In this document: positions 1 through 27,800 of the stretch, one piece after another
Layout of the letters: every line of letters begins with the position of its first letter
How positions within the stretch are numbered: position 1 is the first letter of the stretch
Source of the DNA: Candidatus Omnitrophota bacterium
GTDB taxonomy: Bacteria; Omnitrophota; Gorgyraeia; Zapsychrales; JANLHA01
Direction of reading: 5' to 3'
NCBI GenBank assembly: GCA_963662715.1
Contig: OY759724.1
Coordinates: 1,230,001-1,262,000, forward strand
Length of the DNA: 32,000 nucleotides
Notes under the pieces: model-generated
Databases searched by the model: none
The model's input: the letters and a program-made list of their open reading frames with translations, nothing else
Told to the model about the DNA's origin: nothing
Made by a program: the position numbers and the translations under genes

Positions 1-860
1 AGACGAAGTATTCATAACCGCGGACCTGGCTGAGCGTCTTGCCGTCGTTATAAGAATACTGCAGGACAGGCAAGACCTTATCGGCGTCTGTTCCGAACAC
101 TTCGGCGATGCTTGACTTGATATCCTCCGGATTGACAATCAGGCGGATCTCTGTTTCATCGGTATACGGCTCGGCCCAGCCTCTCGCCAGCAATTTCTCT
201 GAAATTTCTTCCCAGTCAAGGCCTTCTTCTCTCTCGACCTGCTGCTGTGTCAGGACCTGCGGATCGACGATCTTGACCGTCATCTGCTCACCTCTTCCGC
301 CGGTCAGGATGAACTTCCGGCCGTCATTGCCCAGGACATCTCTCCGGTAATAATCTTCCTCCTCGGTCGGAGAACGGAAAACCCGGACTTCTTTCAAGCC
401 GTTGCCGTCCTTGAACACGATCGTTCCCGGATTGATTCCGACTCTCAGATCAACTTCAATATCTTCCCCGTTATTGACCTTGAGCTTGTGTCCTTCCAGC
501 CACAGGACATTAATACCGAAATCTTTGTTGGCATAAAGCGTGGCGATATCGCGGCCGCGGCTGTCATTCGGAGTCAGGTAATGGTAAAGCTGCTTACCTG
601 TCTTGTCCGGATTATATCGCGGCCGGCCCAGCAGAGGCAGGAGCGTCTTGGCATCCGCACCGAACACTTCCGTCATCTCCGCTCTCACGTCATTCAGGTT
701 GACGATCAGGTGAATCTCCTCAAGGCCTGTGCGCTGAGCCCACCCGTTGTGGAGCAGTTTTTCGGAGACATCGCTCCAGTCAAGCTCGGCTCTCTCGATC
801 TGATTTTTGGTCAGATAACCGTTCTCAAGGATAACCGGTGTTTCCTCAACGATATCAAAC
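1..860 (-). repeat. Diverged tandem duplication of a ~188-aa module (period about 565 bp); the second copy runs off the window
   Basis: ELDWSDVSEKLLHNGWAQRTGLEEIHLIVNLNDVRAEMTEVFGADAKTLLPLL (about 795-640) matches GLDWEEISEKLLARGWAEPYTDETEIRLIVNPEDIKSSIAEVFGTDADKVLPVL (about 230-75). Confidence 0.7.
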
Positions 861-3800: not shown

Positions 3801-6800
3801 ACGGCCCCGTCATAAATTCCGCCTCTCACGACCGTTCTGGTTACGCTTTCTCCGTTAACCGTAACGCTCTCGGTCTCAAGATAGCCGTTGCTCTTATCCC
3901 CATCCGCCAGGATTTCCAGGATGTCCTTCGTCAATCTCACCGGCTCGGCATTCTCCAGCATCAACATATGAGAACTGCTTAACAATTCGAGCTCTCTCCT
4001 CATCGTCATTAAGTTGTCGTCCACAAACACGGCCTGGTTGTATCCTTCCGGCATCTCATTTCTCGTGTCTTCGCTGAGATCTTCGAAGTCTTGCGGCAAT
4101 ATGACGCGGGCCTTGCCCTCTTTCAGGTCAACCTTATACTCTACTGTCTCGCCGGCTCCGTTGACGTAGGTCGCCTTCATGTAGAAGGTCACCTGCTCTG
4201 TCTCTTCATTGATCGTACGGAAAATACCCACAGCATTAAACTGTTCTCTATAGTCTTCATAAGTGTCTCTGATGGACAAGCCGTAAGAGAGATCTGCTTC
4301 TGGGATGGCAAACAGCGGCGTACCGTCCACTAATTTTGCAACGCCGCCGAGGGTTTCCGCCGTAAAGGCCTCGATACCGCGGTCGACCAGATCAGCGCTC
4401 GGGATCACCACATCGCCTTGCGGAGTAATGGAAAGGAGGATATTGCTGTACACCGACTTCCGGCTCTTGATCAATATCCCTTCGATTTCTTCGAATTGAT
4501 CCTCTTCCAGACCCGGGAACCATGCCTTGAATTCCGCATCCAGCTCTTCGAATTCCGGAGCCACCCGCATGGCTTCCGATACATAGCCTTTCTCGATGAG
4601 TCTCGGAATAATCGTTGCCGCATCAAGCCCGGCTCTTTCAAACGGCTGGGCTGTCAGGATGCCGCGGCCGGAGCTCAAGGTCATCTCACCCGTGCCGTTG
4701 AGGTAGCTGCCGAAGATCTCTTCATCATCCTCGTTGAATCCGGTGGCCACGCCCAGCAACCGTTTATTTTCTTTATCCTGATCTTCAATATCCTTGCCTT
4801 TGATGAGCCGTCTTAACTGCTCCCAGGCGACAGAAACAAAATCATATTTAAGGTTGGCAGACGGCTCACCGGTTGTGGAATATCGCGCTTCATATTCAAG
4901 TTCTTTCGTAATGTTTCTCCGGACACTGGCGGTCGCGCCGTAATCGCCGTACTGGTTCACGAAGGCTCCAAGGCTGATGCCCTTCTTGCTATACTGCACG
5001 CCATATGTTTCAAGATCATTTTCCCTCTGGTAGTAACCGGAGAACGGCCCGACGTTGCTTCTCAGGCTTAACCGGTCAGAATCGCCGAAGGCCTGATCCA
5101 CGGACATGCTGAAAGTCTTCCAGCTGTATGTGGCCCCTAAGAGCGCGTAATACCGAGTGTAATCCTCCCAGAGGTCATGGACGAAACCGTCGCTTTCTTC
5201 CCTGACCCCGGAAACGCGTACGCTGAACTGATGTGCGCTATTCTCATTTGTCAAAGCCTGCTCGATTGTGATCTTCTGGTAATTGACCTTGTCATCAACG
5301 CCGAACGTGAGATCTTGTTCATCGATCGCCGTTTGCCCGGTCAGCGGATCAACGATATAAACATCTCCCACCTCGGCTCTGTATCCATCTATGTACCCGG
5401 CTTCGGCGCTGATGGTCGTCTTGTTTATCTTGACTTCGACATACCCTTCGACACCTTTGGTTTCCATCTCTTCGCCTTCAACATTGAATTTCCAGAACGG
5501 AGCGAGACCGGCATAGACTTCCGCGTCGCCGACTTCCGTACGGTAAGCCAGGACGTCCACCAGGAGGATAGCGGATTCTTCCTGATCCTCACCGTCATCC
5601 GGGTCGGCGGCGTTCTGCAGGTAACGGTAAGATTCTGTATAACCGACGGAGAGGTTATGGCTAAACGTCGTATTGTCTGCGCCGGAGAGGTCAACGCTCG
5701 CCCGGACGTAGCGGTTTTCAGGAGCGTTTTCGTTCTGAGCCTGGAAGGTTCCGGCTTCCAAATCTACGCCCGGAACGGCATTATGAACCGAGAACTGCTG
5801 GAAGGTGACGGTGGCTTCACCGTTGAGGTTGACCACGTCAATCGTGCCGGACTGAATCACCGGCTGGCCGTTGACCATGGCCACGCGGCCGTAAAGTTTC
5901 TTGTTCACGAACACTTCATCGCCAATCTTGATCACCGGCGGCGGTGAACGCGTCATGCGGGCGATGAAGTTGTTGATGGCTCTAACATGTATTTCTTTGT
6001 CTTCAACGCTCTCTGAACTCTCTTCAACAGCTTTGATTAGGTACTGTCTCAAGGCGACCAATTGATCGTTATAGTCATTCGCCGCATCGGCAACGGCATT
6101 AACCTGCCTCTTCGCGTCGAGTTTAAGCTGTTCATAATCCTCCTCAGCCTCCGCCAGCTTGTTGGCTTCTCTGAGATTGGTGATCTCAGCCTGAATCATC
6201 GGCAGCAAGCCGGCCGTCATCATATCAAAGGCAGGATCGCGTCCTTCTCCTGTTCTCTCATCAACAGCTTTTAACGAAGCCAGGGCGTTCTCGGCTTCTC
6301 TGTCCAGGACATCGCCGATTTCCTCACCGGCGCCTTCCTTGAAGTACTGGCCATTAGCGATTAACGTGTTGATCTCTTCTACGATCCTCAACCGCTCCGT
6401 CAAGATAGCCTGGTTCGCTTCAAAGAAGGCGATCTTGCGCTCAATAATCTGATCCACCGTCTCACTGGACCGACCTTCCTGCAGGGCCAGATCTCTTTCG
6501 ACCTGTCTGTGAACACCGTAGTCCGGATTGTCATGGAAAGCTCTTTCCTGGGACAAGGTCGGGATAAACTCGTTCACGAATTGTGTGGTGGCTTCGCTGA
6601 GAGGCCCGGGTCCGCGGTCGCCGTTGTAAGCCACGACTGTTGACAAGTATGTCTCTGCTTCCGCCGTACGGCTGTATCGGCCCATGGTCTCTTTGGCCCG
6701 CGGCTGGTCATCATCAATATGCCAGTATGTCTTAACTTCCTCAATCGTCTTGACCTTTTCAGGATCTTGTCCTGCCTTGCGCTTAATCGGGATAATGAAG

Positions 6801-9800
6801 AATTCATCGGTGAAATCAACGACATTCAGTTCGATCGACCTCCGGAGCAGGGATTGTTTTTCTCTGAGGAGGCCAGCTTCTGTTTCCGCTAATTCACGGC
6901 GGCGGTCTAACATGCTGGTGACTGTTTCGGCGGCAATATTTCCTCCCTGATCGCTGATCTCATAAAGTCTCTGATAGTAGCGCAGTTCTTGCAGGTTCCG
7001 GTTGGCTAAGACCAGCTCTCTGCGGGTGGCGGACAACCAATCATTGATCAGCGCATTATAATCGCTTTGGCCTCTCGTATCCCGCTCTAAGCTTTCCAGC
7101 TGCTCGATACCTTCTTCCAGGCGCTGGATATACCCCATTCTCTCAATGTCATCCTTGCCATGAGCTCTATCATATAAGCCGTCATCGCCGGTAATGCCTT
7201 TGGATCTGTCTCCGTAATACTGGATGCCTTCCCAAATTTCTTCGCGTTTCGGCAAGAGGTTCTCGAAATCTCTTTCATCCCACAAGGCCTCTATGGCAAC
7301 CAGACGGCCGGGTTTCGGATTGCCTTCGTCGTCATATTCGATTTCTCCCGTGATAGGATCTAACTCATACGGCCCTTCAATGGACTGAATCTGATAGCCC
7401 GCTCGTGTAATGGACAGGTTAACAGCCGCTTTCCAGCCTTCTGTGTCACCTTCCTCCGGCAGGTTGCCTTCGGAATCTCTTTCTCCCAACCCTAAGCCCT
7501 GGGCGGCCAAGACCATGTTCTCGGAAACGCCGTTCTGCAAGTTGCGCAAAGTCGTCAAAGCATCGGCGATATCAGCCAAATCTGTTCTTAAATCTTCAGC
7601 CGTTTCTACGCCGAACAGCGAGCCTGTGCCTCGCTCACGGTATTCGTTGATCACATCCGTCAAGACCTTAACCACATCACCGTCTTCTTCCTCGATCTTT
7701 TCTCTTAATTCGGCAAAGTATTTCTCACCGCTGACGTCGTTAGGATCTTCGGAAAGGGCGATCATTCTCAAATATTTCTCCAAGGCTGTCCCTTCAATCA
7801 GCTTGAAGTCTTGTTCCGCTCCGCTCTGCAGGAAGCTCTTCCAGGCGGCTAACCGCTGCTGGACAACGTCATCGTCTCTTTCAACCATTTGTTTCTCAAG
7901 CTCCTGCAGTTCATTGTCCAGCGTCCCCAACATGGCATTCAGTTCATCGACCAGGCCTTCCTGGCTGTCTCTGGCCTCGGTGAGCTTCGCTATGATCTCA
8001 TTCAGAGCCGTATCCTCGCTATCGAGTTTTAACAGGGTCGCCAGTCTCTGGATGTTCTGAATATCGGCCTGAGAATACTTCACCTGGTCAAAAGCGGATA
8101 ACTCTGTATTCACTTCCGGTTCGGAAACCGGCAGTTCAACGCCGTCTTCGACATCCATGATCGGAGTGCGGTCTGTATACTGATATGTTCCATCGGCATT
8201 CTGGACAGCGACCAGGTTGCCTCTGTCAGCCAGTTCATTGTAAACCTTGGTGAATCCTGGACCGTATTCGAATACGCTGACGTTTCCTGTACGGCGGTTG
8301 ATCAGCAGGGTGTTCGGCAGCACGTCGTCCGCCTGGTACTCGATAATCTTTCTGGCCACTTCTGTCTGGCCGTCCTGCTTGGTCCACTGCATCAGCAGAG
8401 ACATATATTCATCCTGCTCGCGGCTGATATAGTCGTTGACGATTTCCTGTTCGTTGAAGATATAGCGTGAACCTTCTCTCGGGTTGGATACCGAATGAAC
8501 CATGCCCACCGGAACGCCTCTTTCCGGTCTCAAGAAGAGGACGCCGACCTCACCCTTGATGGTTCTCTTATCCTGTAATGTCCAGTATTGTGTGCTGACT
8601 CTGTCTTCCTCTTCCCTCAAGGAGACGACCTCGTTGTCAAGCTGGGCACCGCCGATAACCAGTTTTCTGTACGGCGGCAGGCGGGTCTTCTTCACAACCT
8701 CGTCCGCCGCATACTTAATGGCGCCCTTCTCTAAGTTCGTTAATATCGACTCGTTGGTGACTGTGCTTTCCGGAATAGCGATCAACATTTCCGAGAACTC
8801 TTTATCACGCACAATCAGAATGGTCTGATTCTCTGAGGCCTCAACGATCTCGGAAGAGTTTTCAATTCTTAACGGATCGGTTACGCGGACGTTAACGATA
8901 CGGGCCGGTTCCGTCATTTGGTCCGTCGGATCAAAGACCACCATATCGATGCGTTCGCCGATTTCGGCCGGGATACGACCTAAGATGGCATCGACTTCCC
9001 TGCGGCTTAAGTCGGCGGCATTGTACTGGATTCTTTCACCCCGGTTGTTCAGATATCCGCTTTCTTCGATCTCGTTCAAAATGGTGTTGTAGATGATCTT
9101 GGTCTGTCCGTTCACATCGGCTGTGAGCGTTCCTTCTTCAATATCCAGGAGTTGATCCTGCGTCAGCTGGTCTGTCCTCAGATAATTTCCTTCGGTGTCA
9201 TAAACAGCCATCAAGGCCGCAATATCATCTGCCGGATTCGTATGCATCCAGAGGTTCAGTTCAGCCGGCTCGGCTCCGAAGATCACGATCGGATGGACAT
9301 AGCGGACTTCTTTTTCTCCATTATCTCCGCCTTCACCGCCGTCCGAACCGCCGATTTCGTTGATGATAAAGTGCGGATCAATTGCGACTTCAACCGGGTT
9401 GCGGCCTAAGTAGTAGGTCATGCCGTCACGCTCAAACAGTTTGTTCGGCAGCACGGCCGGCAGGTTCTCTTCGAAATAATGCTCGGCAATGATTTCCAGT
9501 GTCACCGGGTTGATGCTGACAGCCACCGGACGGGTCTCTTTGTTCTTGCCGAACATCGCCTCAAAGAGTCTCTGGTTAAAGACCTCGGACGGCAAGACAT
9601 ACATTTCGCCTTGCTCTCTGTACGGGAAGCGGTTGACCGGATCTTCCATGAAGGCTTTCGTGACCGGGGTCTTCGCTTCCTTCAGAGCCGCGGATGTCTC
9701 TTGCAGGGTTTCTTCCAGCTCTGCCCTTTCAGTCTCATCTGTTGTCTGGCTCAACTGGGCCTGTATCTGGACAATCTCTTCCTGCAATTCTTCAACGGCT

Positions 9801-12800
9801 TCGATGTTATACCAGTAGCGGAGCGTGATGAATACCGTTTCTTTTCTGTCTTCCGGATCCTCGGCTCTCAAATTGTATCGATACCCGAAATCAAACCAGT
9901 CTGCCGGATAAACATTGTCCTCTATTTCAATTGTTTCTCCTTCTTTTCCTCTCTGAACAGCATAGATAATGCTCGGGTCTGTGTTCTTTTTAGCCTCTAA
10001 GGTATAATCGACTTCCCGTCGGCCGATGAACGGTACGGCCGGATATTTATGGCCTTCGTAAACTGAATCCTTATCAGGATCACCAAAGATGCTCCATACG
10101 CGGCCGAAAACTTCCTGGACAAAGTCGCCGATCAAGTGCGACAACGGGATGTCAGCTTTGCGGCCCGTGCGGATATCAGAGAACTTGGCTTCCGTGCCTT
10201 CATCGTTAAGCGGAATAATTTCCGGACTGGCCTTAAGCTCTGTTGTCAGATCCACGAACGGCCGCAAGACGTCCAGGGCTCCGCGGGTCTTATCCAGTCT
10301 CCAGAAAGGATGTTCTCTCTGAACCGCGATACCGCCCACGCCTTCCATGTTGAGGTAAACCTTCTCCATGCCTTCGTTATAAATTTCTGATGCGGCCTGA
10401 GCCCAAGCGACATAAGTGAAGGCTTGGGTAGCGATGGAAGCATCTGCAATGCTTTCCGCCCCGGTGGCCATATTGATAATCTGGGCATATTTATTGAGCG
10501 GTGTATCGAGCCCGATCATGAAATCAAGCGTGCCGTCTTCCCAAAGCTGGATGGAATGCCCGAAAAGCTTGTTGCCCGGATTCCAGTTGATACCGATTCC
10601 GGCGAAGAGGCTGGCCACCTTCTGCTGATCCTGCTGGGTCAATCCATTGGCGAAGTTTTGCGGCGTGGAGGTGAGAACCTGGTTATAAACGTCAAAGACC
10701 TGATATAAGGCTTCCTGCCGTCTGCGTTCATCGTTACGGGCATCGCCTTCTGTCTTCATCTGGATCTGTCTCAGCAGTTGTCTGGCCTTAAGGATATCTT
10801 CTTCTAATTCCTGAATACCTTCGCGGACATCTTCTAATCTGTCTTCCGGTGTCACTTCTTCCGGAGCGTATCTGCCGGCTTCAACGTTAAAGAGTCTTCT
10901 CTGTTCACGATCTATCTGCTGGCGGATCTTCTCTGTCTGGACTTTCGTCGTTTCGCCCCGTTCGCTTAAGACCTGAAGTTCATCTTCTTCCAGGTACGGA
11001 TTCATGAGCGACAAGGTCTCATCATTAATCTTCAGCTTAAAGACATATTCGGACTGGGCTGTTGTCTCGGTTCTAAACGTGCCCGCCAAGCCCAGGATCG
11101 TGCCGGCCTTGATCTCCTGGCCGACCAAGTTAACGTTGGTGCCTGTGAGATGACCGAAGATCTGCTGGACTTTGACTGTCTTGCCTGACCCTTCTTCCAC
11201 TGTTTCGGATTCAATGATAATTTCTTCACCGAACGGACCAGGCTCAACGCTAATCACCGTACCATCCATATAGCTCCGGACTGTGCTCTGTTCCGGCACA
11301 ATATGCTTCACAAACAGGCCTTGTGCTCTGATCTGATATTCAGTATTCACAATCAAGCCTTCCGTCGCCGCTGTTGTTTCCGGAGTTTCTGACGGCACAA
11401 CGCGGCCGGCAAGTTCTGAGGCTACAAATCTCGGAGTATCAATATTATCGAATTCATCAACCAAGGCGTAAATTGGGTTCTTGCTGGCAAACCACAGCAT
11501 CGTTTGCATACGGTCGACCTCGGCAACTTCAACCGCCTGTCTGAACAATCGGTAGACAATCTGGTTCAGCTCTTCTCTCGTCTTGAACTTGTCTTCCTGC
11601 GAAACAATGAAGACCATACCTTGTTTCGGTCCGACCGGCTCATCGGTAAAGGATTCCTCGTCCAAGATAGCGTTAATGTCTGTTATATCTGATTCAGTTA
11701 AGTTTGTTAACGGCTCAACGCCATCTGTTGTGATCTTCATCAAGCCGGCGCCGGTTCGGTAAATCAGGTACGGATCCTGCTGATCCGGAGTGGCGACGCC
11801 GGCGCCTTCTGTTCTGAACTGTGCGTGATCATCGATTCTCAGGATCGACATGACCGGCAAGGCTTCCTTCAGCTCAAAGTTCTGCTTAGCAATCTCCATT
11901 CTCTCTCTCAAGCTCAAGTTCGCAATAACGTCATGCTGTTCGACTTTGGCATCCGCCTCCGTTTCGCTCATAAACCAGATGCCTTCTTCTCTATAAGATT
12001 CGTCAATCGCTTTGAATTCACCGTCAAGTCTGCCTAACCGGGTCGGGACCGTTACCTCTTGTCCGCTGGTCAACCGTGTTCTTAACCGGCCAAGATTATC
12101 CACATCAAGATTTTCGAAATAGTTCATAATTGTTCTGACATACTTCGGTGTTTCCTGGTTCTTGGAGACATCACCCTTAATAACTCTCGGGTAATACCCG
12201 GCAGAATACCCCGGTCCGGCGTTGTATCCGGCCAAGGTGTACTGCAGAAGCTCTCTTAACGTAAGGTCTTTGTTCTCATACTTGCTGTTCAACATGGTAT
12301 CCATAACCTTGGCCACATAAGCGACGCCAACGGTGATATTCTTCTCGCGGTCGAACGCTTCACCATAGGACCATCTGCTGTCGATAAGGCCTCGGCTGTA
12401 AAGCGTGTTAACCATGGAAGACCAGGTGCCCGGCATGATCTGCATAATGCCTGTTGCGCCGGCCCGGCTGACAGCTCTCGGTTTGAAGCGGCTTTCCTGA
12501 TACATCATGGAAATAATGAATTTCTCCAATTCGTCCTTTGTAAATAACGGCTGGCCGTTGTTGTCTTCAAATTCTTCGGCGACCTGTTTAAAGATCGGGT
12601 AGTTCTTCCAGGCATCTTCGAGGATATCATCGAGTTCACGGATATCATGGCTAACCGGTGTTCTGGTCCGGCGGGCTTTTAAGTCTTCCGCATCCGTCAT
12701 TTCTTCGACATCGGATACCGTCATCTGACTTATAGCTTCCACGGTCAACGCTGTTCCTGTGAGGTCTTCATCTGCTTTGGCTTTAAGATATCCGCGGTAG

Positions 12801-15800
12801 AATGCTTCTGTCGGATCAATGCGATATTTATCTCTTGTCATTAAGGAAATCACTTTCTGGCGATCGGAAGACGGCGCAATACAGATTTCCATATGGACAT
12901 GGGCGACCGTTGTTTCGGCATTACCTGTTTTACCCGAGAGGGCAAAGACTTCACCCGCTTCAACTTTATCTCCTTCTTCGACCTCGTAATCATTCAAGTG
13001 GAAGAAGATAAAGAAGACTTTATCGCCGCCCGCCACTGTTTCATCGGATTCGATGAAGACGGTCTTTCCTGCTTTCTCAGACGCAGGATTGGTATGGATA
13101 ACCCGTCCGGAAACCGGCGACTTCAATTCCACGTCTTCCGGCAGTAATATATCGATTCCGCCGTGACCATTGACGGACCCGATTCTATAAGTTCCGAATC
13201 TTCCGTCTCCCTTGGAATCCCGTCCGCGGAGGACCCCGGCAGCGATCATTTCATCTTCAATAGCCGCGTTGTTCTCGAGTCTCTCTGTTGTTTCCGGAAC
13301 GTCCCTGCCTTCCACTCCCGGTTCTTCGGCCACTTTTCTTCTCAGGTCTTCTGTAATCTCACCCTCAGCAATCTTATTGCTGATGTGGACTAACGATTGC
13401 GGTGTCAACTCAAAGTCATCCCGGTCGTCACCGCTGAGCTGGAATGCTTCCTGGAAGAAGGCGATATCCTGTTCATCTAAGTCATCCCATTTGGCCTTAT
13501 CTTCAACAACGGCATCAATAAGAGCTTTGGACAGATATTGTTCTAAGGATTCTCTGTTAGCTTCCACCAGCAACAATGCCAGTTGACGATCGCGTTTTTC
13601 TTTCATATCGGCCAGGAGCTGAAGCTGCAACTGTTCTGCGCTGAGATTGATCAATTCTTTTTCTGAAACATTTTCATCCTTCAGTTTTTCTCTCGTGGCT
13701 GTTATGGCTTCTTCCGCTTGGGCCACGGCATCTTCATCCGAAAGCTCTGCGTCAAAAGTCTTGGCTCTGGCCGCTAATTCGTATACGGCAATATCTTTTT
13801 CTCCACCCATAATGTTCTGATAGACCCAGTTGCTGGCGCGTATTCCAGCTGCATCTTCGACACTATCCAGACCATGCTGAGCCCAGTTAATCGCACCATA
13901 CTGACCTTCAAGAGCTTCGGCCAAATTGTAGATCGGTTTACCCACAACGCCTAAGATCGGGTGTTCAGCCAAGGCCTTGCTGCCGCCCATAACCGCGTCA
14001 ATTTCAATTCCGATCAAGGACATATGCCACAAGCTGCTTAAGAACTTGCCGCCTTCTAAGAGCCATTGAGCGAAATAGGATGTCTTGGCTTTTTCAGTTA
14101 AATCTTTATTAGCTTCCTGCATCAGGTTAACGAAGAAATCAAAATCAAATTTTCTCGTATTATTCATCAGGAAGACCGGGAGATATCCGAGATAGAAGAC
14201 CGTCGCCAGCGGCACACCTAACCAGAAGCCGGTTAAGGCCTTGCCTAATGCTAAGGCCCGGTTCATGATGCTTCGTCCCTGCGGCGCGGCAACCTTGGTT
14301 TCGGCCTCTAACATTTTCTTCAGGGCCGGCCGGCCTTCAGCCGTTACAGTTCCGTCGGCGATCAATTCCTTGATAAGAATTTCTGTCTTCTCATTAGCTT
14401 TCTTGCCCTCTGCCGGATGCATCAAGCCGTACAAGTAGCGGGCAGATGTCGAGGCGATATTAACACCTTGTTTCTTCCTGGCCCGGATATACATAAGATG
14501 TTTGGCTGTATCAAGAACACTCATGAATCTCAAGCCAAGCACCGTAATCATTAATTTGACAAGTTCGGGCACGGATAACGGCAAGCCTAAAGCGTTGGAT
14601 GCGACAACATCCATACCGAATATCGAGATAACGAGAGCGTGGCCGATAACGCCGGAAATGAGAAGCATGGTGCCTCGGCTGACCGCAAAGCGTACGATAC
14701 CAAACGGAACCGGGAAGGCGGAGACCAGCCAAGCCAATAACTTCTGTCGACCATATGTCCAGGTCTTGCGGATACTGCCTATTTTTTCAGTCGCTAATTC
14801 TTCTCTGAGGATCTCGGTCTCTGCTTCAACACTCTTCCTCTTCTGCGCATCCATGGTTCCGTCTTTGTATTCCTTGACGAATTCAGCAAAATCAATAGAT
14901 TTCATGATGTATTCCCAGAAGAAGTTCCAGACCACTTTGACCAGGTAAGGTGCCAGGTATCCGAAGATGGCGCCTTTAGCCACGGAAATCCAGAAAGCTG
15001 TTGTTGCTACTGCTGTTAAAGTAAGCGGCATGAACAGGGCGCCGACAACCGCCCCTGCTGCCAGTGAAACGAGGGCAATCTTTGTCTTATTCTTGTCGAA
15101 GATCCTTAACATGCTGCCGATTAATGAGGACGGCTTCGGAGCATATGTCTGGGAATGTATGATTCTCAACGCCTGGCGTTCGAGCAAGCTGACGCCGCCC
15201 AGGACACCGTAAGTTAAGGAGGCATCTTTTCCAGCCTTAAGATTACTGACGTCCTTCACAAACAGGGCCAAACCGGCCATAATTAGCGATGATACGCCGA
15301 AAATGGCTATAAGCGACCCAGCCATCGTTGGAACGAGGGCAATACCGGCAGCGGCTATTCCAGCGTGAATTAATAATTTGAAGACATTGTAGACATCGCG
15401 CTTTTGCAGCGGTCTGGTGAACAAATCTCTTAAGTTACTCCAAATACCAGGTTTGACTGGACTGGAGACATTGCCGGTCTCATGACTTGAAATCTCTGTT
15501 TCTTCTCCCTTAACCGGACTGGAGACCGAGGTGTCCTCTACAGAAGCCCGTACGGGCGAACTGGCCACAGGAAGCTCGGCCGCCGTGATATTGGCTTGCG
15601 GGCTTAAGTATGTAATTCCGCGGTAAATACCTTGCGGATACCCTGTCGGTAACATCTGATCCGTGAATCTGATGACCATAGATCCACGTTTTACGGCCTG
15701 CTGCCCAGCTGTCGCTATACTGCCTGTTCCGATCTTGCTGATCATGTGTTCAGCAAAGAATCTAGTATTGTTTTCTTCTGCGTCGCCGCTTCCCTCTCCG

Positions 15801-18800
15801 CCGGCCGAAATTTCGAAGACGATCTTTGTTCTCATGCTTTCCAGCAGTCTGCCTAAGTCCACTATCGGATTCAGGAGAGCGCTAAGAAGTCTTTCTGTCT
15901 GTCTCTTATTGTCTTGATATGTCTTTGTTAAGAGATAATAGTAGAACCCTGTCTGCTCTTTATAGGTTTCTGAGATACGGCTTAATTGCTTAATAAACTC
16001 ATCTTGTTTCTCAAAGCCTCTATTGACACCGGAATCAAAGACGGCCTTCAAGCCATACAAGGCCGTTGTGCTTTCCTCTCCGGCATTTCTGTCGATGGAC
16101 GTGATCAGGTCAGCCAATTGTTCTCTGCTTGTGCTTCTGTACAACTTCGAAGCAAACATTCTTCTGAAGAGGTAATCTCTTGCTCCCCTTGCTGCTCTTC
16201 TGTAATTTTCAGCCGTGCTGAGCGCTGTCCAGGCCGCCGTCAGGTGCTCAACCGTCTTCCTGTAATCTCTGGCCATGAACTCTTTGACCTTGCCAGGTAC
16301 ACTTCTGAGCGCTGTCCAGGCCGCCGTCAGGTGCTCAACCGTCTTCCTGTAATCTCTGGCCATGAACTCTTTGACCTTGCCAGGTACACTTCTGAGCGCT
16401 GTCCAGGCCGCCGTCAGGTGCTCAACCGTCTTCCTGTAATCTCTGGCCATGAACTCTTTGACCTTGCCAGGTACGCTTCTGAGCGCTGTCCAGGCTGCCG
16501 TCAGGTGCTCAACCGTCTTCCTGTAATCTCTGGCCATGAACTCTTTGACCTTGCCAGGTACACTTCTGAGCGCTGTCCAGGCTGCCGTCAGGTGCTCAAC
16601 CGTCTTCCTGTAATCTCTGGCCATGAACTCTTTGACCTTGCCAGGTACACTTCTGAGCGCTGTCCAGGCTGCCGTCAGGTGCTCAACTGTCTTCTTGTAA
16701 TCTCTGGCCATGAACTCTTTGACCTTGCCAGGTACGCTTCTGAGCGCTGTCCAGGCTGCCGTCAGGTGCTCAACCGTCTTCCTGTAATCTCTGGCCATGA
16801 ACTCTTTGACCTTGCCAGGTACGCTTCTGAGCGCTGTCCAGGCCGCCGTCAGGTGCTCAACCGTCTTCCTGTAATCTCTGGCCATGAACTCTTTGACCTT
16901 GCCAGGTACGCTTCTGAGCGCTGTCCAGGCTGCCGTCAGGTGCTCAACCGTCTTCCTGTAATCTCTGGCCATGAACTCTTTGACCTTGCCAGGTACACTT
17001 CTGAGCGCTGTCCAGGCTGCCGTCAGGTGCTCAACCGTCTTCCTGTAATCTCTGGCCATGAACTCTTTGACCTTGCCAGGTACACTTCTGAGCGCTGTCC
17101 AGGTCGCCGTCAGGTGCTCAACCGTCTTCCTGTAATCTCTGGCCATGAACTCTTTGACCTTGCCAGGTACACTTCTGAGCGCTGTCCAGGCTGCCGTCAG
17201 GTGCTCAACCGTCTTCCTGTAATCTCTGGCCATGAACTCTTTGACCTTGCCAGGTACACTTCTGAGCGCTGTCCAGGCTGCCGTCAGGTGCTCAACCGTC
17301 TTCCTGTAATCTCTGGCCATGAACTCTTTGACCTTGCCAGGTACACTTCTGAGCGCTGTCCAGGCTGCCGTCAGGTGCTCAACCGTCTTCCTGTAATCTC
17401 TGGCCATGAACTCTTTGACCTTGCCAGGTACGCTTCTGAGCGCTGTCCAGGCCGCCGTCAGGTGCTCAACCGTCTTCCTGTAATCTCTGGCCATGAACTC
17501 TTTGACCTTGCCAGGTACGCTTCTGAGCGCTGTCCAGGCCGCCGTCAGGTGCTCAACCGTCTTCCTGTAATCTCTGGCCATGAACTCTTTGACCTTGCCA
17601 GGTACACTTCTGAGCGCTGTCCAGGCTGCCGTCAGGTGCTCAACCGTCTTCCTGTAATCTCTGGCCATGAACTCTTTGACCTTGCCAGGTACGCTTCTGA
17701 GCGCTGTCCAGGCTGCCGTCAGGTGCTCAACCGTCTTCCTGTAATCTCTGGCCATGAACTCTTTGACCTTGCCAAGTACGCTTCTGAGCGCTGTCCAGGC
17801 TGCCGTCAGGTGCTCAACCGTCTTCCTGTAATCTCTGGCCATGAACTCTTTGACCTTGCCAGGTACGTTTCTGAGCGCTGTCCAGGCCGCCGTCAGGTGC
17901 TCAACCGTCTTCCTGTAATCTCTGGCCATGAACTCTTTGACCTTGCCAGGTACGCTTCTGAGCGCTGTCCAGGCCGCCGTCAGGTGTTCAACCGTCTTCC
18001 TGTAATCTCTGGCCATGAACTCTTTGACCTTGCCAGCTTTAATGCTTACAGCCTCAACAGTGCTGTCAACCATCTCTTTCACGCCACCTCGTTTGATGAA
18101 GTTATAAACCCTTGCGCCCAACATCAAGCCAGGAATAATGAGAAGGACTGGCCAAACGGCACCAACCGTTGTCGCAACAACTGGTACGGTCTTTGCCACA
18201 ACCGGCAAGCCGACTGTCAGACCTTTACCTAATCCATAGGAAACAATGAGGTAGAGTATCGCAGATTTGATGGTTCCTGTTGCTGCAGCTCTGAACATAT
18301 TTCTATAGGTTACAGCACTAAAGACCGAACGGAAGAACCTCGCCGTACTCGCTCCGAATGTCTTTACGGCTTCGCCCATCTGTCTTGCTTTCTTTGCCGC
18401 TCTCTGATATCTCTTGTAGGACTTGGAAAGCAGGATATCTTCAATAACTTCTTTATCTTTACCCGCTAATAATTGGGCTAATTCATCGTTATTATCGAGT
18501 TTCAAGCGTCTCAATAATTTTTCTGTTTCACCGAGATTTCTTTCTATCGGTGAAGAGGAGGCAGAAGCTGTAACGGATTCGCGGCCAGAGGCGGAAAGAA
18601 CAACCTTCTCTCCCACCTCTGGTGTTTGAGATAATGCATATCTGCCTCCCTTAGTTGAGATTTCTGCGTGATCCTGTTCTGTAAATCGGAACTGTTCTAT
18701 TCTGGATCGCACTGGAGAGGATGCCTCGAACATGGTTGTACTCGGCTGCGCTGGTAAGCTCAACCCAAGTTGCTTTAAGGCCGTTACGGCGGTAAATCCG

Positions 18801-21800
18801 GCCTTTATGGTTGAAGATGAGGTATAAATGAGTTCTTCCTGTCTTCTCTCTGGCAGTGCCGAAGATACAGTCGCAACGCTGGATCTCAACGAGATGTTTG
18901 AATTCGATGTCTGGTAATTGATTGGTTTGCGTGTTGATAAGGACCATAATGTACCTCCTGTGGTTAATTGAATTGCTTGTGTATTTGTTCTATCAAATGA
19001 AGAACCCTGACCGGTAATATCTGCACGAATGGCAGCCATACCAGACAGGGTTCGTTTTGTATGGGATATAAGTGAAGCAACAGATCCTATATTTGCAGCT
19101 CTTGGTGCAACTTCATATCTGAGCTTCAATAAGGTAAGATTTGTCCTTATAGAGACATATGTGTCATATATGCCTTTAGTAATGACACAAATAGCTTTGG
19201 CGAGATTTTCTCGCTTAAAGACTTGAGTTAAGAGTTTTACTCTCTTGAGGGACTTTGATACAACTAACGATACGAGTGGCGTGCTAACTGGAATAGCAGC
19301 AGCCAATAGTTTCTCAACACCTAATGAACCTTCCCAAGCCATTCTAGACAGCCCAGAAATAGTTCTTGTAGTGTTTCTCTTTTCGCCTGTACCAGTTGCC
19401 TCGTTCTGATCCGCAGCTCTATCTGTTACAACCGCTACATCCTGAGTAAACTCTGCCTTGTCAGAACCTCTACCCGTTGTTACAGCAATAACCGCCTGAG
19501 CGATTCTCAGATCAAATTCATCCGCTAAAGCTTTATCCTCAGCAGCGCTTACCTTTATACCTACAGGCAACACTCTGAGAACTCTTCTTAACACATCTTC
19601 AGAACCACTTATCACCTCGATCGCTTTCGCAATCCAAGCTCTCAGCAATTCTGCGATACTGCTAAGCACACCTTCAGCAGATTCTTCGTACGCTTCTACA
19701 GTACTTACAGCCTGACCAGTCACCTGACCAAACCGTATACCTAAGGCTTTATTCTCAGTCACATCCATTACTGGCTGTACTCTGAGAATTCCACTGGAAA
19801 CAGCTTTTACTGATCCAGGCACAACTTCAGTTCCTGTTATCAGTACACCATCACCAGCAACCCTAGCTTCTGCTCGTACTGCATTCGCATAGCTAATCAC
19901 TTGACCGATTACTCGACCAAGCTTCACAAAGGCTTTTGCCTCAGCAAGACTTACTGTTTCTTCAACAGCTTGTTCACTGAGAACCTTATCAGATACAATA
20001 TTCGAACTGCTTACACCTTCGATTACTTGCGCAACCTTAGACTTCAGCAATCCTTCTACTATACCTTCACTTCTTACAGAGCGGTTTACTACAGTTACAA
20101 CGCGGTTAGCCTGAGCGATTCTCAGATCAAGTTCATCCGCTAAGGCTCTATCCTCAGCAGCGCTTACCTTTATACCTACAGGCAACACCCTGAGAACTCT
20201 TCTTAACACATCTTCAGAACCACTTATCACCTCGATCGCTTTCGCAATCCAGGCTCTCAGCAATTCTGCGATACTGCTAAGCACACCTTCAGCAGATTCT
20301 TCGTACGCTTCTACAGTACTTACAGCCTGACCAGTCACCTGACCAAACCGTATACCTAAGGCTTTATTCTCAGTCACATCCATTACTGGCTGTACTCTGA
20401 GAATTCCACTGGAAACAGCTTTTACTGATCCAGGCACAACTTCAGTTCCTGTTATCAGTACACCATCACCAGCAACCCTAGCTTCTGCTCGTACTGCATT
20501 CGCATAGCTAATCACTTGACCGATTACTCGACCAAGCTTCACAAAGGCTTTTGCCTCAGCAAGACTTACTGTTTCTTCAACAGCTTGTTCACTGAGAACC
20601 TTATCAGATACAATATTCGAACTGCTTACACCTTCGATTACTTGCGCAACCTTAGACTTCAGCAATCCTTCTACTATACCTTCACTTCTTACAGAGCGGT
20701 TTACTACAGTTACAACGCGGTTAGCCTGAGCGATTCTCAGATCAAGTTCATCCGCTAAAGCTTTATCCTCAGCAGCGCTTACCTTTATACCTACAGGCAA
20801 CACCCTGAGAACTCTTCTTAACACATCTTCAGAACCACTTATCACCTCGATCGCTTTCGCAATCCAGGCTCTCAGCAATTCTGCGATACTGCTAAGCACA
20901 CCTTCAGCAGATTCTTCGTACGCTTCTACAGTACTTACAGCCTGACCAATTTCACTACCTAAGACCGTATCCCTGACAGCTTCACTTATACCACTTGAAG
21001 CCACTTCAGGAACATCTTCTAATATAGTCAAGGCATTTACAGCTCTTTCAGTTGTTTTCACAACATCAGAACCTTCATAAACCTCAACCACACTAGCATC
21101 TTCGACAGTTACTGCACCTACTGTCTTAGCATACACGGCTTGAGCATCATCTCGTTCAAGCTTTTGTTCAAAGGCATTATCCTCAGCAGCACCTACTTCT
21201 ATATAAGCAGATACCTTGAGAACATGACCATACAGAATCTTTGCACCGCTTATTGCTTCAACATCGCGCAACTGCTTCACAGCAACTAACGATACCTGAT
21301 CTCTTCCAGCCATACCATTGATACTTCCAACATACGCAACATCAGCAGCCTTGCTTACAGCAGACATATAGTCTACATCAAAGGCTTTACCCTCAGCACA
21401 TAAGCCACTACTGGCCAACACACTCAGGATACGATTTGTGAATACGTTATTCAGCACATTCTCATTACTGAGGACGGCTACAACATATCCATCAAACCTT
21501 ACACCCCTGACAAAGCTTACTTCAGTAACAATGTCAGCATGATCAATTACTTGACCAAGTATACCAAAGGCATCTAACTCAGCCTCACCGGATACATCAT
21601 CAGCGAATACTCTGAGTTTTCCACTGTACAGAGAATCAGCACCGCTTATTGCTTCAGCCACACTTACAGCATCCACATTAAGCCATACACTGAATCCGCT
21701 AGTACTACCTTTAACAGAACGTGATACAACTCTTCCAACACCAACAACGGAAACAGTTTGATCGCTTACACGACCATACTCATTGCTGATTGCACTAGAC

Positions 21801-24800
21801 ACACCAAATACATCACTTGATTGTGTACTAGCCTTCTCATCATTAGACACAGCATTCGATTCGCTTCCAAGCGTTGATACACCTTCATCATCACTTGTAG
21901 TCGTATCTTCAACAACGCTAACGATAAGTACAGAGCGATTAGTCCATTTGCTGCCGTACGTTCTAAGGATCGTTACAACACGATTCGTATACTGCTTCAA
22001 CCAAGCACTAACTTTCATCAGGGCCGATCTAACAGCCACGAATATTCCTTCAGCTACCTTGAATGGCTCTTCAAGGTTGTAGCTGGCTGTAGGCACAGCT
22101 TCCGGTAATGTACTTCTTCTAGACCCGTTACCAGACTCAGATCTAGCAATTCCCTGAATCAATCCGGACAATAGAGCCATAACTGCCTTGGCTATGCCTC
22201 CGAAGAGTATAGACCAATCAATTGCAGCTATACCACTAATACCAGATGTTCTCAAAGAACCGGCATTGGCGTATGTTCCACCTACACCTCTCGTGTTAAC
22301 GCCTCCACGATTGGCGCTCACCCATCGAGTCTCTAACTCATCCTCGGCTTTTTGTGTTGCTGCCGAGAGAACTGTACTACTCGTCTCAACATTGACGATT
22401 GCACTGCTTACACCGTTCGCGTTATCGTCACCGCGACTGGCGTTTCTCACCCAATTAGTTTTTAACTCTGGTGTCACCGCTGTCGAAGCAGCCGTGATCA
22501 CACGAGCCGATTCAGCGATTGTACTGCTCACACCAGCAGCTACGCTAGTTCTGGTGGCGTGTTTCTCCCTTACTTCTGTCTTCGCCTCTGATGTGGCCGA
22601 TGCGACAACCACACGAGCCGATTCAGCGATTGTACTGCTCACACCAGCAGCTACGCTAGTTCTGGTGGCGTGTTTCTCCCTTACTTCTGTCTTCGCCTCT
22701 GATGTGGCCGATGCGACAACCACACGAGCCGATTCAGCGATTGTACTGCTCACACCAGCAGCTACGCTAGTTCTGGTGGCGTGTTTCTCCCTTACTTCTG
22801 TCTTCGCCTCTGATGTGGCCGATGCGACAACCACACGAGCCGATTCAGCGATTGTACTGCTCACACCAGCAGCTACGCTAGTTCTGGTGGCGTGTTTCTC
22901 CCTTACTTCTGTCTTCGCCTCTGATGTGGCCGATGCGACAACCACACGAGCCGATTCAGCGATTGTACTGCTCACACCAGCAGCTACGCTAGTTCTGGTG
23001 GCGTGTTTCTCCCTTACTTCTGTCTTCGCCTCTGATGTGGCCGATGCGACAACCACACGAGCCGATTCAGCGATTGTACTGCTCACACCAGCAGCTACGC
23101 TAGTTCTGGTGGCGTGTTTCTCCCTTACTTCTGTCTTCGCCTCTGATGTGGCCGATGCGACAACCACACGAGCCGATTCAGCGATTGTACTGCTCACACC
23201 AGCAGCTACGCTAGTTCTGGTGGCGTGTTTCTCCCTTACTTCTGTCTTCGCCTCTGATGTGGCCGATGCGACAACCACACGAGCCGATTCAGCGATTGTA
23301 CTGCTCACACCAGCAGCTACGCTAGTTCTGGTGGCGTGTTTCTCCCTTACTTCTGTCTTCGCCTCTGATGTGGCCGATGCGACAACCACACGAGCCGATT
23401 CAGCGATTGTACTGCTCACACCAGCAGTTACGCTAGTTCTGGTGGCGTGTTTCTCCCTTACTTCTGTCTTCGTCTCTGCTGTGGCTGATGCGACAACCAC
23501 ACGAGTCGATTCAACGATTGCACTGCTTACACCGTTCGCGTTATCGTCACCGCGATTGGCGTTTCTCACCCAATTAGTTTTTAACTCTGGTGTTACTGCT
23601 GTCGAAGCAGCCGTATTCACACCAACCTTTGCTATCGTTACAACATATTCAAGTCCTGTCCTCTCTTGAGCAGCTTTTCCTGCCTGAATGCCTGAGGAGG
23701 CATTGGCAGCGGCCCACGGCGTGGGACTAGAGCCAGAACTTCTAAAATTCTTTTTGGCTCCTTTGTCTATACTTAAATCTATGTGTTGCCGTTCTGCTTG
23801 CGGATCAACAATTGGTGCGCTGGCAACAGAAGCTTTATTAGCATTCATATTTCTGGCATAGGCGATAACCAAAGCTGTCTTGGCTTTTGCCGTTCCTGTA
23901 GCTCCGGCAGTTCCTCCGCCAGGAGCCGGCTCTTCAACAGGAGCAGGAGAACTAAACGGTGAACTTGTAATAGGAACACCTTTGGTTCCGCTATCCTTTC
24001 GGCCTTCTATAGGATTATGTTGATTGGACGGAAGAGACAACTTCCCAAGACTGAACGCTGCTATAGGCAATGCAGGGATAAATATTGGAGAAGACGGCAC
24101 AGCTTGCACAGGTAATTGCGGCGGTGCAACAGGCTCTGTAACAACAACTGGCGGTGCTAGCGGCTGTTCTTCCGGAGGCGCACGAGAAGCTTCCGTTAAT
24201 ACGGTTTCTTCCGGTTTAGAAAGGTCTTCCTGTTTAGCCACTTGCCCTGATACCTTATCCTGAATTGTTATCCCTGAAGCATCGGCAGGTTTCTCTGCTT
24301 GGGCCTTGTCCACTTTTGCCACTTCAATAACTTCTTCCTGGGCTCCTTCTTTAATTTCACTGCCGAACAAGAAGGCAAAGGCATCTTTAAGTTGTCCCCA
24401 CAAGCTCTCTGAGGACTCTTCGCCAACGAGAGCAACCAAATCTTCCTTAGTTTTAATTTTACGCAACTGATTAAGCGATTTTTCTAATATTGGATAGCCG
24501 TCTTCTGAAATTGTACGCTGTCCTTCCTGCTGTGCGGCATTGATAACAGCGTCCATCTCTTTGGCAAGCAACTGTCTTTCTGCCTGATCCTGAATTGACT
24601 GAGACATGACGGCCTTTATAACATCAAATGCTTTTCTGTTATCGACTGACAACTTCTCAATTTGCTGAATAACTGGTGAAGCCTGCGCAAGGCGCGGAAC
24701 CTCTGTAACCGTACCTGGTTGGTCTTTGGCTGTGGTAGAAGCTTTTGCAATTTCAACATATTTGGTTTGACTCTTTAACTTCTGACCATACGGAGTTCTT

Positions 24801-27800
24801 AATTCAGGCAAATTCATAGGGCTGGATAAAGCAACTATGATCGTTTCTGGAGTCTTTGATGGCGACTCGGACGGGAGATCTCCCGCGGATTCCTGAGTCG
24901 CTGATTCTGCCGGATTCATGATAATCATTGAAGACATCATCAGCAGACCACCAGATTTCACCTTTTGCTTTTGGGCTGCAATTCTTTTTGTTCTTGACGC
25001 CGTCCATTTCTGCTCCATAGCATTGGAAGGCAGATTCTGCGCCGGGGTCCTGGCTGGCTGAATCCTCACATAAGGTTTGGCAACTTGTGCAGGGGCAGAA
25101 GGACGAGTGATCTCTTGCTGTGTTGACTGAATAACCCGTGCATTCTTACTGGTCATCAACTCATCAACCGTAAATGACTTCACATTACCGTCTCTCATCT
25201 CCAGGCTGGCAAGTCTAACCTCCTGATCACTGCCAGGTGCCTTAAACTTAACCTGAGAAACGATCTTTCCAACCTCACTTATATTGTTTTGCCCGGACAA
25301 CTCTACCGTCTTACCCACCTGAGAAGGCTGCCCTTTAAATTCTTCTGTTATTATCGGACTGGCAACTGCAGCTAAAGCCATTTCTTCGCCAGCCGTGGCC
25401 GTCGTAGTAGTAGGACTAGGAAGAATGGCAGGAGGCATAGCAGCGGCTACGGATATTTCTTCTCTAGACGAAGCCGCCGACTCAACTTTTCCTCTGGAAG
25501 CAGCTGACGGCGTTTGAGCTAATAAGCCCATTGACGGCATAGTGGTCGCATCCATTCCAGGCAGCAATGGCAAGACTGTAGCCGGTGCGGCCGGAACAGC
25601 GGCTGGCGTTGATGCCGGCTGTTCAATAACAGTCGTTTCAGCCACCTGCTCTTTACGTGTTGTTATGCCTCGATCAATCGCAATATCAAACTGATACTGT
25701 TCAATATCCGACTTGCGGGTCGAAGCGACAACAATTTGCTCACCCGTCAAAGTTGTATACAGAATAGGGATGTCTTTCAGCTTGAATTGATCTTTTTCTA
25801 TTGACTTAAGGTCTCTGGCGAGGATCTTTCCAACCTTATTCGTCACGGCGACAACAAAGACGCCAAAAGCATCTTTAACCTCTAATTCCCTGGCTTGAGA
25901 TTCTTCAATAAATGCCCTGTACATACCCAAAGGATCGGAAATGCTCAAGTTATGCTTCCTGGCTTCGGCTATTCTCTGGTTCTGTGTCGCGACGTACTCC
26001 GGACCTATAATCAAGTAGGTCTGGCCTTTATTGTTCTTAATGATCCTGATTCCCTTAGGTTCAACGAAATAATTAAAATCATCGATCTTCACAAAGTCAA
26101 TTTGAATGTTCTCTTCCATCGCCAACTGTCTTGTCAAGGCTTCTAAATAATCTCCCATACTAAAGTCGGCGCCAGGAATGATATTGTCAAAGTCAACACG
26201 TTTATCAAATCTTACTGGTTTAAATACCGGTTTCTCGTTATCCACACTAACCATGACCATCTTTTCAGAATAGATCAATTGATTTCCGTTTACCGGCACG
26301 GCCAATTCCATTTCCTCGTCAAATTTAGCCCAAGCCAAATATCGAGTATTTCCTAAATGAACGGAAACCGGCAGCCATTTCTCTCCAGATGTTTTATCAA
26401 GGTATATATCCGCTGTTTTATCTGCCTCTATCAAGTATAAATTCCTGCGCTGGATATCACTCAATCCGGCAATAATCCGGCCTACTTCTATAATATTCAC
26501 GCCCTTGAATTCCATCTGCTGACGTCTCACCCGCCCTGTAGCATCGACGAACCGGACAAAATTCTTTTCGATATAGGCCCTGTCCCCGTCAGGCAAGCGA
26601 ACGACTGTAACCGCTTCCGGATCAATTCGATTTCGAGCAATAGTCTCAGCCCGCGTCTTCTCCATGGCTATAACAATATTTTCACGGCTGTCAACGATAA
26701 GGGACGTCGTTTCTATTTCTTTAGGATTATTTACCAAAGCTTGCGTCAACAATATTGTCTTTGGCTCCCCTCGCTTATTAATATCTGTTAACAAAATTTT
26801 TGCCGGAAGATTCATGTCTGAAGGAACAATCTGAATCCGGCTAATCTGTGATAAATCAGAAATATCAACCGATTTCGCCAAAGACACCAAAACACTCTCA
26901 ACCTGTTCTTGGGCGGAGAAATCACGTTTATCATAAGCAATCAATGTCGGGCTATCTGATTTGATCTGGCCTTCGGAGATTAAATCATGTTCTTTTAATA
27001 CCGCCCCAACGTCAACCGTACGATATTCTGAGCGTAAGGAATGGGAATACTTGCCTGTTTTCATGGCAATGGCGATACGATCTGTCTTTTCGATCTCCGG
27101 AATTTCTTTCTGTTCTCCCAAAATCGGATTAGAAACCACCCTGCGGAACGTCTCTTCCGGAATCAAAACAGTTCTGGTGTTCTCTGTTTCATCCGTAAGA
27201 TACAGTCTTGACTCCAAACCTTTACCCCGGATAATCTTAACGTGAGTTGTTCCTTCCTTGAACTCCGGATAGCTTCCCATAAGATCTAGGAGGCCCATCT
27301 TCTCAGAAACCGACAAATTGGCAGAATAGATAACCGAGGCATCTGATGCCTTTTCTTGGGTCAATGGGCTGGATAATGATGCTATCTCGAGGATTTCTCC
27401 CTGAACAAGCTGAAGTTTCTCGGTTGTCGGGAAAAGATGCTCGACCAGATCATTGTCCAAATAAGGCTTACGACCGACAATGTATTTTCTTAAATCTTCT
27501 GCTGACGGCTTCAAAGTCTGAGCATTCCCCAAGAGAACAACAGGGAAGTTACGCGGTAACTGATCAAACGGCAGTCTTTCTGATATAATTTCTCCATCCA
27601 AGCTCTTGTGATAAGCCACAAACGGTGTTTTTCTTGCCGCTTGAAGGGTTTGCATCAAATTTCTTACCAAAACGATATCATAATCGTCCAATTGAGGAAC
27701 CGCTTTTAAGAGCTTGTCCAGCCTGTTAATCGTTGCGGGTTTCTCCATCATAAGCATGGATATCTGCTGAATCGAATCCTGGGATAAGCTCATTCCTAAT

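Follow-up and report, generated by a model that had tools for sequence, protein, structure and literature searches.

In group B Streptococcus, the alpha C and Rib proteins carry long repeats that are identical at the nucleotide level. In-frame variable tandem repeats, or coding minisatellites, are known from microbial surface and envelope proteins (reviewed by Gemayel et al., 2012, PMC3899988), and among long genes 17% contain strict nucleotide tandems and 86% contain fuzzy ones (2026 preprint, 10.64898/2026.06.07.730766). For the giant proteins of Omnitrophota, the SLT lytic transglycosylase is counted among the less common domains (West-Roberts et al., 2023, bioRxiv 10.1101/2023.11.21.568195). 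The stretch of DNA analysed here, 32 kb long and referred to throughout as the window, lies wholly inside a single gene, the ends and neighbours of which are beyond the window, and it contains a minus-strand tandem array of 21 units of 87 bp. This array is a coding minisatellite, a known kind of repeat, inside a giant gene of the Omnitrophota type, and it is probably a young, in-frame one within the gene of a giant membrane protein.

The array resembles coding minisatellites in its head-to-tail units, a unit length divisible by 3, copies almost identical in their DNA sequence and a mosaic of few variants, and growth and homogenization by unequal exchange or slippage, which we infer here, would be a further likeness. 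Tandem Repeats Finder (TRF) reports it as a single array at 16218–18036, with a period of 87, 20.9 copies, 98% matches and 0% indels. In the minus-strand register it resolves into 21 head-to-tail units of 29 codons each (87 = 3 × 29) that are translated without a stop, the repeat match of unit 21 being lost past column 77, and two units differ on average by 1.6 nt (1.9%). The flanks of the array have no significant similarity to the unit, and hence no claim of decayed edge copies is made. Unlike the minisatellites of surface proteins the array is predicted to be cytoplasmic, so that immune or phage evasion would be no obvious driver.

The units differ mainly at two sites, columns 60 and 81 (Table 1). 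Column 60 has G in nine units (1, 2, 6, 7, 11, 14, 19, 20 and 21) and A in 12; column 81 has T in ten units (5, 8, 9, 10, 11, 12, 16, 17, 19 and 20) and C in ten. In the minus frame both columns fall on third codon positions and their variants are silent, whereas in an antisense open reading frame (ORF) on the plus strand variation at column 60 exchanges R and C and variation at column 81 exchanges A and T. The other variants are singletons, four of them replacements (R>K at 16695 in unit 16, A>T at 17104 in unit 11, P>L at 17775 in unit 3 and S>N at 17868 in unit 2) and two of them silent (GAG>GAA at 17987 in unit 1 and ACG>ACA at 16688 in unit 16). All eight variants are transitions, and three of the four silent ones are in CpG. 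The P>L variant changes CCTGG to CTTGG and so falls on the inner C of a Dcm-type CCWGG motif. Among the 20 full units, the haplotypes at columns 60 and 81 are GC (5 units), AC (5), AT (7) and GT (3). An earlier sequence-only reading of this DNA had described an 87-bp array of 21 copies with two main variable sites, silent in the minus frame and amino-acid-changing in the plus ORF, and with all four haplotype combinations present; TRF and a column-by-column table of the units agree with this description. Neither of the two outcomes that it had named as contrary to it, common sites away from third codon positions or only two or three haplotypes, was observed. It had also listed four amino-acid-changing variants, all of which are where it placed them, and had overlooked the two silent singletons.

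Table 1. Coordinates, in the window, of the arrays, variable sites, reading frames and domains discussed in the text.
Feature	Position	Strand	Basis or remark
Giant open reading frame, 10,666 codons without stop, cut by both window ends	2..31999	(-)	Six-frame scan and translation
87-bp x 21 in-frame array	16208..18034	(-)	29-aa units GKVKEFMARDYRKTVEHLTAAWTALRSVP, residues 4656-5264 of the open minus frame
Common silent site 1, unit column 60, GCG/GCA Ala	16235..17975	(-)	Position 17975-87(k-1), k=1..21
Common silent site 2, unit column 81, AGC/AGT Ser	16301..17954	(-)	Position 17954-87(k-1), k=1..20
748-aa antisense ORF, by-product of the repeat, not a gene	15986..18232	(+)	Codons are exact reverse complements of sense codons
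Sister array, 111-bp (37-aa) units, 10 in-register copies	22421..23530	(-)	No base differs among 8 of the copies (888 bp)
Sister array, 615-bp (205-aa) units, ~2.4 copies	19490..21023	(-)	Copies 1 and 2 differ at 2 nt
Decayed 69-bp (23-aa) repeat, motif GGMMQVSSSVI(K/Q)PSP	28751-29750	(-)	61-89% identity
Hydrophobic hairpin, two predicted membrane helices, residues about 4570-4622, basic flanks	18134..18292	(-)	Just upstream of the array; hydropathy scan
Conserved polytopic membrane module, ~550 aa, residues about 5539-6110	13670..15385	(-)	Common to Omnitrophota giant-protein fragments
Peptidase M23 domain, residues 6278-6373	12881..13168	(-)	Pfam PF01551, E=1.4e-18
SLT lytic transglycosylase domain, residues 6492-6597	12209..12526	(-)	Pfam PF01464, E=3e-16

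Several observations establish that the gene, which exceeds 10,666 codons, is encoded in the minus frame: this frame is open across the whole window, encodes M23 and SLT domains and a conserved membrane module with homologues, and has tandem periods that are multiples of 3 (87, 111, 615 and 69, four of four). The program-made list of ORFs omits this frame, since it runs off both ends of the window. The variants between copies amount to four silent and four replacement events in the minus frame, as against one silent and seven replacement events in the plus ORF. The ratio of replacement to silent change in both orientations (dN/dS), which had been proposed as a check, gives an omega by events of 0.29 for the minus (sense) frame and 2.3 for the plus (antisense) frame, a difference that is not significant with eight events. 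Among the 87 transitions possible in the unit, 32% would be silent if read in the minus frame and 33% if read in antisense. Both common variants would be silent by chance with P ∼ 0.10, and at least four of eight events would be silent with P = 0.24 if only transitions are allowed and P = 0.08 if all changes are; common and rare variants do not differ in their silent and replacement shares (Fisher P = 0.43). The 75 codons common to all three copies of the 615-bp array add six events, four silent and two replacement, which brings the silent total for the two arrays together to 8 of 14 (P = 0.046, with a share of 0.32 expected from transitions). The claim that the variants independently identify the selected frame is thus right in direction, but eight events are too few to carry it (P ∼ 0.08–0.24). 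That the replacement changes have remained singletons would fit mild purifying selection on the peptide but is no proof of it.

The affinity of the gene was assessed from its relatives. A HMMER search with residues 5501–6700 against 1.84 billion representatives returned 1314 matches, the best of which are long partial proteins. Among ten relatives looked up, seven are named Candidatus Omnitrophota or Omnitrophica; most span their contig from end to end, and one has 7848 aa. The nearest are giant partial proteins of Omnitrophota metagenome-assembled genomes (MAGs), at 25–35% identity. One of them, P0001 (MCD4781990.1), aligns collinearly to residues 5558–6104, 6485–6618, 7049–7377 and 7810–8157 of the window protein and has the same domain order, M23 and then SLT. 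The core motifs of the membrane module are PYLxxVLWNFFWSY, FWxSFWHMWIIGAEIGAVI and LEGxxGAIxWG; the module is common to many giant Omnitrophota fragments and is present in two copies in P0002. When Genome Taxonomy Database (GTDB) genomes were scanned with the module alignment, five loci were found, four of them titled Omnitrophota and each one open frame across its contig. A word-indexed protein search gave no match for residues 5265–6700, for residues 6701–10666 or for the module of a relative, and protein-pattern scans with the M23–SLT stretch found nothing in genome or viral contigs and one weak SLT match in metagenome contigs. Like the Omnitrophota giant proteins, the window protein has an open frame of more than 10,000 codons, scattered membrane helices, an SLT domain and its nearest homologues among Omnitrophota MAG proteins. 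Unlike them, it has none of the hallmarks of the Archaeovorin and dockerin types, no HEAT, TPR, SecA-DEAD, glycosyltransferase, dockerin or TSP3 domain being detected by Pfam in the 10,666 residues of the gene that the window covers; its identity to any relative is at most 35%, and its GC content is higher than that of related loci. A conserved type II secretion-like locus, a further mark considered, would lie upstream of the gene and outside the window. The window protein is probably a divergent addition to the Omnitrophota giant proteins, one in which a membrane module is followed by M23 and SLT domains and which has three very young in-frame arrays.

The distribution of haplotypes bears on how the array grew. 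Columns 60 and 81 are unassociated (Fisher P = 0.65), and the order of haplotypes along the array, with 7 identical neighbours against 4.4 expected, does not depart significantly from random (P = 0.12). Four haplotypes call for either a breakpoint between columns 60 and 81, an interval of 21 of the 87 nt, or repeated mutation. All four combinations are also found across the unit border, from column 81 to the next column 60, trivially due to adjacency, and since the phase of the unit is arbitrary a unit that is "recombinant" in one phase is mere adjacency in another. In a toy simulation restricted to arrays with two common sites and 5–11 variable columns, duplication and deletion of whole units in register produced four haplotypes in 7–13% of arrays, and each haplotype in at least 3 copies in 1.6–3.3%; with random breakpoints and an otherwise identical process the corresponding values were ∼60% and ∼24%. 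Exchange within units is favoured by this model roughly ten to one over in-register copying. A single informative site pair is too few for a meaningful pairwise homoplasy index (PHI) test or genetic algorithm for recombination detection (GARD).

The sequence-only reading had taken the four haplotypes to imply recombination or gene conversion rather than stepwise duplication. Breakpoints within units are indeed favoured, but no separate gene conversion is required, because ordinary unequal crossing-over or slippage yields such breakpoints, and the contrast between recombination and stepwise duplication is a false one, because unequal exchange or slippage has no cause to break at unit borders. 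We propose that either unequal homologous exchange or slippage during replication, acting between units, enlarged the array and has kept it 98% uniform. Each of the two common silent third-position transitions would have been born in a single unit and then copied along the array, and the two would have been re-assorted by exchanges with breakpoints between columns 60 and 81, 21 nt apart. Four haplotypes are thus the expected outcome of ordinary unequal exchange, and where a tandem array offers two informative sites, both silent and replacement counts and the four-gamete test have low power.

Other repeats are found in the same gene and in a relative. The decayed 69-bp repeat shows earlier rounds of expansion within the gene, in which two sister arrays are also located. 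A plus-strand ORF over the 111-bp array (22188–23669, 493 aa) is seemingly another antisense by-product. The relative P0006 (locus L007) has two near-perfect arrays upstream of its membrane module, of 357 bp × 4.2 and 438 bp × 6.8, whose units are unrelated and in which one site pair likewise has four haplotypes. No copy of the 29-aa unit was found in the 150 best relatives or in the rest of the window protein, and the unit alone has no significant match in Pfam or the PDB, which therefore makes the array a lineage-specific expansion. An exact DNA search for the 87-bp unit in viral contigs gave no match, and a second copy of the array locus was not found in any collection searched. Matches of the whole array to the Pfam family HAAS and to phrog_16578 were rejected, being sums of 21 weak partial matches, none of which passes singly and which are gone when two units are used.

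A possible role of the array is suggested by the physical character of its unit and by the charges around it. The 29-aa unit is amphipathic (hydrophobic moment 0.43 at 100 degrees) with a net charge of +3, and an AlphaFold2 (AF2) single-sequence model of the hairpin and seven units has approximately one helix per unit with a Val-Pro-Gly turn between (predicted local distance difference test, pLDDT, 38.7). Each unit may thus form one amphipathic basic helix closed by a Val-Pro-Gly break. The array (609 residues) has a net charge of +61 and the flanks of the hairpin are basic, whereas the 630 residues after the membrane module, which include M23 and SLT, have a net charge of −44. By the positive-inside rule the array would lie on the cytoplasmic face, between the membrane hairpin and the membrane module, and the acidic M23/SLT part would be outside the membrane. 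The hydropathy peaks, a crude prediction, are at residues 3263, 4230, 4604 and 5539–5945, and the second hydrophobic stretch of the hairpin, ∼4570–4590, was read from the translation. With low confidence, the array might be a helical spacer or scaffold of variable length and not a catalytic part. A more ambitious proposal is that the 87-bp array and its two sisters are length modules, with a copy number shifting quickly between cells by unequal exchange. In an Omnitrophota-like bacterium living as an episymbiont or predator, they would adjust the spacing or reach of a giant machine that spans the envelope and cuts the cell wall. We consider this very unlikely; if true, the three arrays would be a built-in adjustable ruler and not passive filler. 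The three arrays could also serve as natural markers for strain-level variation in copy number, if reads are examined.

Several other explanations of these data can be considered. That the 748-aa plus-strand ORF (15986–18232) could be a genuine gene, by itself or in overlap with the minus frame, is scarcely credible: although it is the longest complete ORF in the program-made list for the window, it is nested in the 10,666-codon frame on the opposite strand, begins with TTG and has an extent dictated by the repeat. It is open because the unit has none of the sense codons TTA, CTA and TCA, the reverse complements of stops; the longest gap between such codons in the giant frame, 749 codons at residues 4590–5339, coincides exactly with it, and seven of the eight inter-copy variants alter its amino acids. 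Once it is set aside as a false gene, a single reading frame of a giant gene takes up all 32 kb. As regards the haplotypes, copying of whole units in register, with the fourth haplotype due to a second independent mutation at one site, might draw on the fact that columns 60 and 81 are both transitions in CpG context and on the 7–13% of in-register arrays in which repeated mutation alone gave four haplotypes. Nevertheless, the haplotypes each have at least 3 copies and are interspersed, an outcome confined to the above-mentioned 1.6–3.3% of arrays under that model, no known mechanism restricts slippage or unequal exchange to unit borders, and the window has no CpG depletion, with an observed/expected ratio of 0.99; we therefore hold such copying to be most improbable. 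On the same ratio, CpG hypermutability was rejected as the source of the common variants. Alternatively, the copy number and the placement of the common variants might be an artefact of assembly, polishing or strain mixture and not properties of one real molecule. Random assignment of reads to copies would produce an order of haplotypes indistinguishable from random, as is found, and the two sites are independent, GC, GT, AC and AT being observed 5, 3, 5 and 7 times against 4, 4, 6 and 6 expected from the margins; the restriction of all variants to transitions, the CpG context of most of the silent ones and the derivation of the relatives from metagenome assemblies also agree with an artefact. 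Yet a 21-copy contig is unlikely to be obtained from short reads alone and long reads would cover 1.8 kb, the six singletons are in unique units (two in unit 16), which is the pattern of real mutations, and the hexamer AGCGTA at column 81 is present in nine of the ten in-register units of the 111-bp array, including the eight identical copies, and is invariant there, so that context-driven flicker in base calling is disfavoured. An artefact is, on these grounds, unlikely.

A different question is whether the peptide matters at all. The array might be selectively neutral filler: selection would act on neither peptide nor copy number, and a loosely constrained giant gene would put up with any in-frame expansion that is free of stops. 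This is possible and accommodates several of the results: the silent excess in the 87-bp array is not significant, the 29-aa unit is an orphan that is absent from relatives, three independent arrays with unrelated units are present in the same gene, and the array of the relative varies chiefly by replacement changes. New repeat copies have, moreover, been reported to be under strongly relaxed purifying selection (Persi et al., 2016, PMC5120217), which we count in favour of filler. However, the two variants that spread are silent and the replacement variants are all singletons, the silent excess pooled with the 615-bp array reaches P = 0.046, and the unit has the pattern of a regular amphipathic helix and not of low-complexity sequence, and we regard neutral filler as somewhat doubtful. 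The preferred reading, in which a giant gene for a membrane protein of the Omnitrophota kind holds a young coding minisatellite in frame, has its own difficulties, and the following points weigh against it. No variant test on the 87-bp array by itself is significant, and the counts are small. Most inter-copy variants of the 438-bp array of the relative change the amino acid, and the silent excess is therefore not general to these arrays; young in-frame arrays thus recur in the giant-protein family, and the silent excess does not. The window carries no taxonomic marker, and its link to Omnitrophota comes from distant homologues (25–35% identity). One related protein is labelled archaeal and another "phage tail tape measure protein", and the GC content of the window is ∼50%, as compared with 39–47% in related loci. 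Finally, the helical picture comes from the sequence pattern, the pLDDT of the AF2 model being too low to serve as evidence, and the topology is derived from charge.

The M23 and SLT cassette beside membrane helices is a likeness to phage tape measure proteins and to conjugation-linked hydrolases. PHROG families of tape measures and endolysins match the M23 and SLT domains, and tblastn matches proteins of the SPbeta YomI type. These PHROG and tblastn matches are limited to the M23 and SLT stretches, unlike what is expected of a tape measure (against phages and plasmids, tblastn gives 26–39% identity, confined to the hydrolase domains), and more than 10,666 residues is far beyond the size of any tape measure. 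The 29-aa unit has no significant match to tape-measure sequences (best E = 0.72), and the genes downstream of the relative at locus L007 have no PHROG or Pfam match. Identity as a tape measure was rejected on the size of the protein and the gene context of the relative. Locus L007 corresponds to ENA ERZ21869602 ctg75682l, with a GC content of 38.6%; its arrays are within 1–4530, its gene call has a frame break inside the first array near 422–441, and its giant gene ends at 10438, after which there are six genes without a family match. Polyvalent proteins (Iyer et al., 2017, PMC5512222) are likewise very long chains that combine cell-wall-cleaving domains with other modules, and the window protein contains, besides M23 and SLT, a weak RelE/ParE-like stretch, but the zincin-like peptidase, the methylase–helicase pair, ArdC and other hallmark domains were not detected, and the RelE/ParE match is below the Pfam cut-off. 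This toxin-like stretch is at residues ∼447–521 (30437–30661, minus strand) and matches PHROG 1213 with E = 6e-4 and Pfam ParE_toxin with E = 0.0065.

Over all 10,666 residues, Pfam reports only M23, SLT and the one additive pseudo-hit on the array. A second M23 stretch is among the Pfam reports and was tentatively placed, by eye, at residues ∼6900–6985 (window ∼11045–11302, minus strand). PDB sequence searches with the N-terminal and C-terminal parts gave no match, and Rfam and tRNA scans found nothing. An AF2 model of the membrane module has a pLDDT of 62.7 and a predicted template modelling score (pTM) of 0.62, and its comparison with the PDB gave no fold match below E = 0.6. Residues ∼8740–9060 (window ∼4820–5782, minus strand) have, by eye, an alternating hydrophobic pattern reminiscent of a beta-barrel; the stretch matched no family or structure. 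D+E make up 19% of the C-terminal 3,600 residues, a strongly acidic region, and the 10,666 residues of the minus frame contain only three cysteines.

The motif S-S-P-[V/I] occurs 10 times in the giant frame against 0.33 expected, with a maximum of 3 in 2000 shuffles, and may be a processing or modification site. Its first residues are 195, 556, 1144, 1301, 2636, 4427, 4482, 5480, 5493 and 5512, the window coordinate of the first codon base being 31999 − 3(i − 1) for residue i, and all occurrences are N-terminal of the membrane module. The motif is enriched in relatives too, with 18 occurrences in P0013, 6 in P0018, 3 in P0022 and 2 in P0006.

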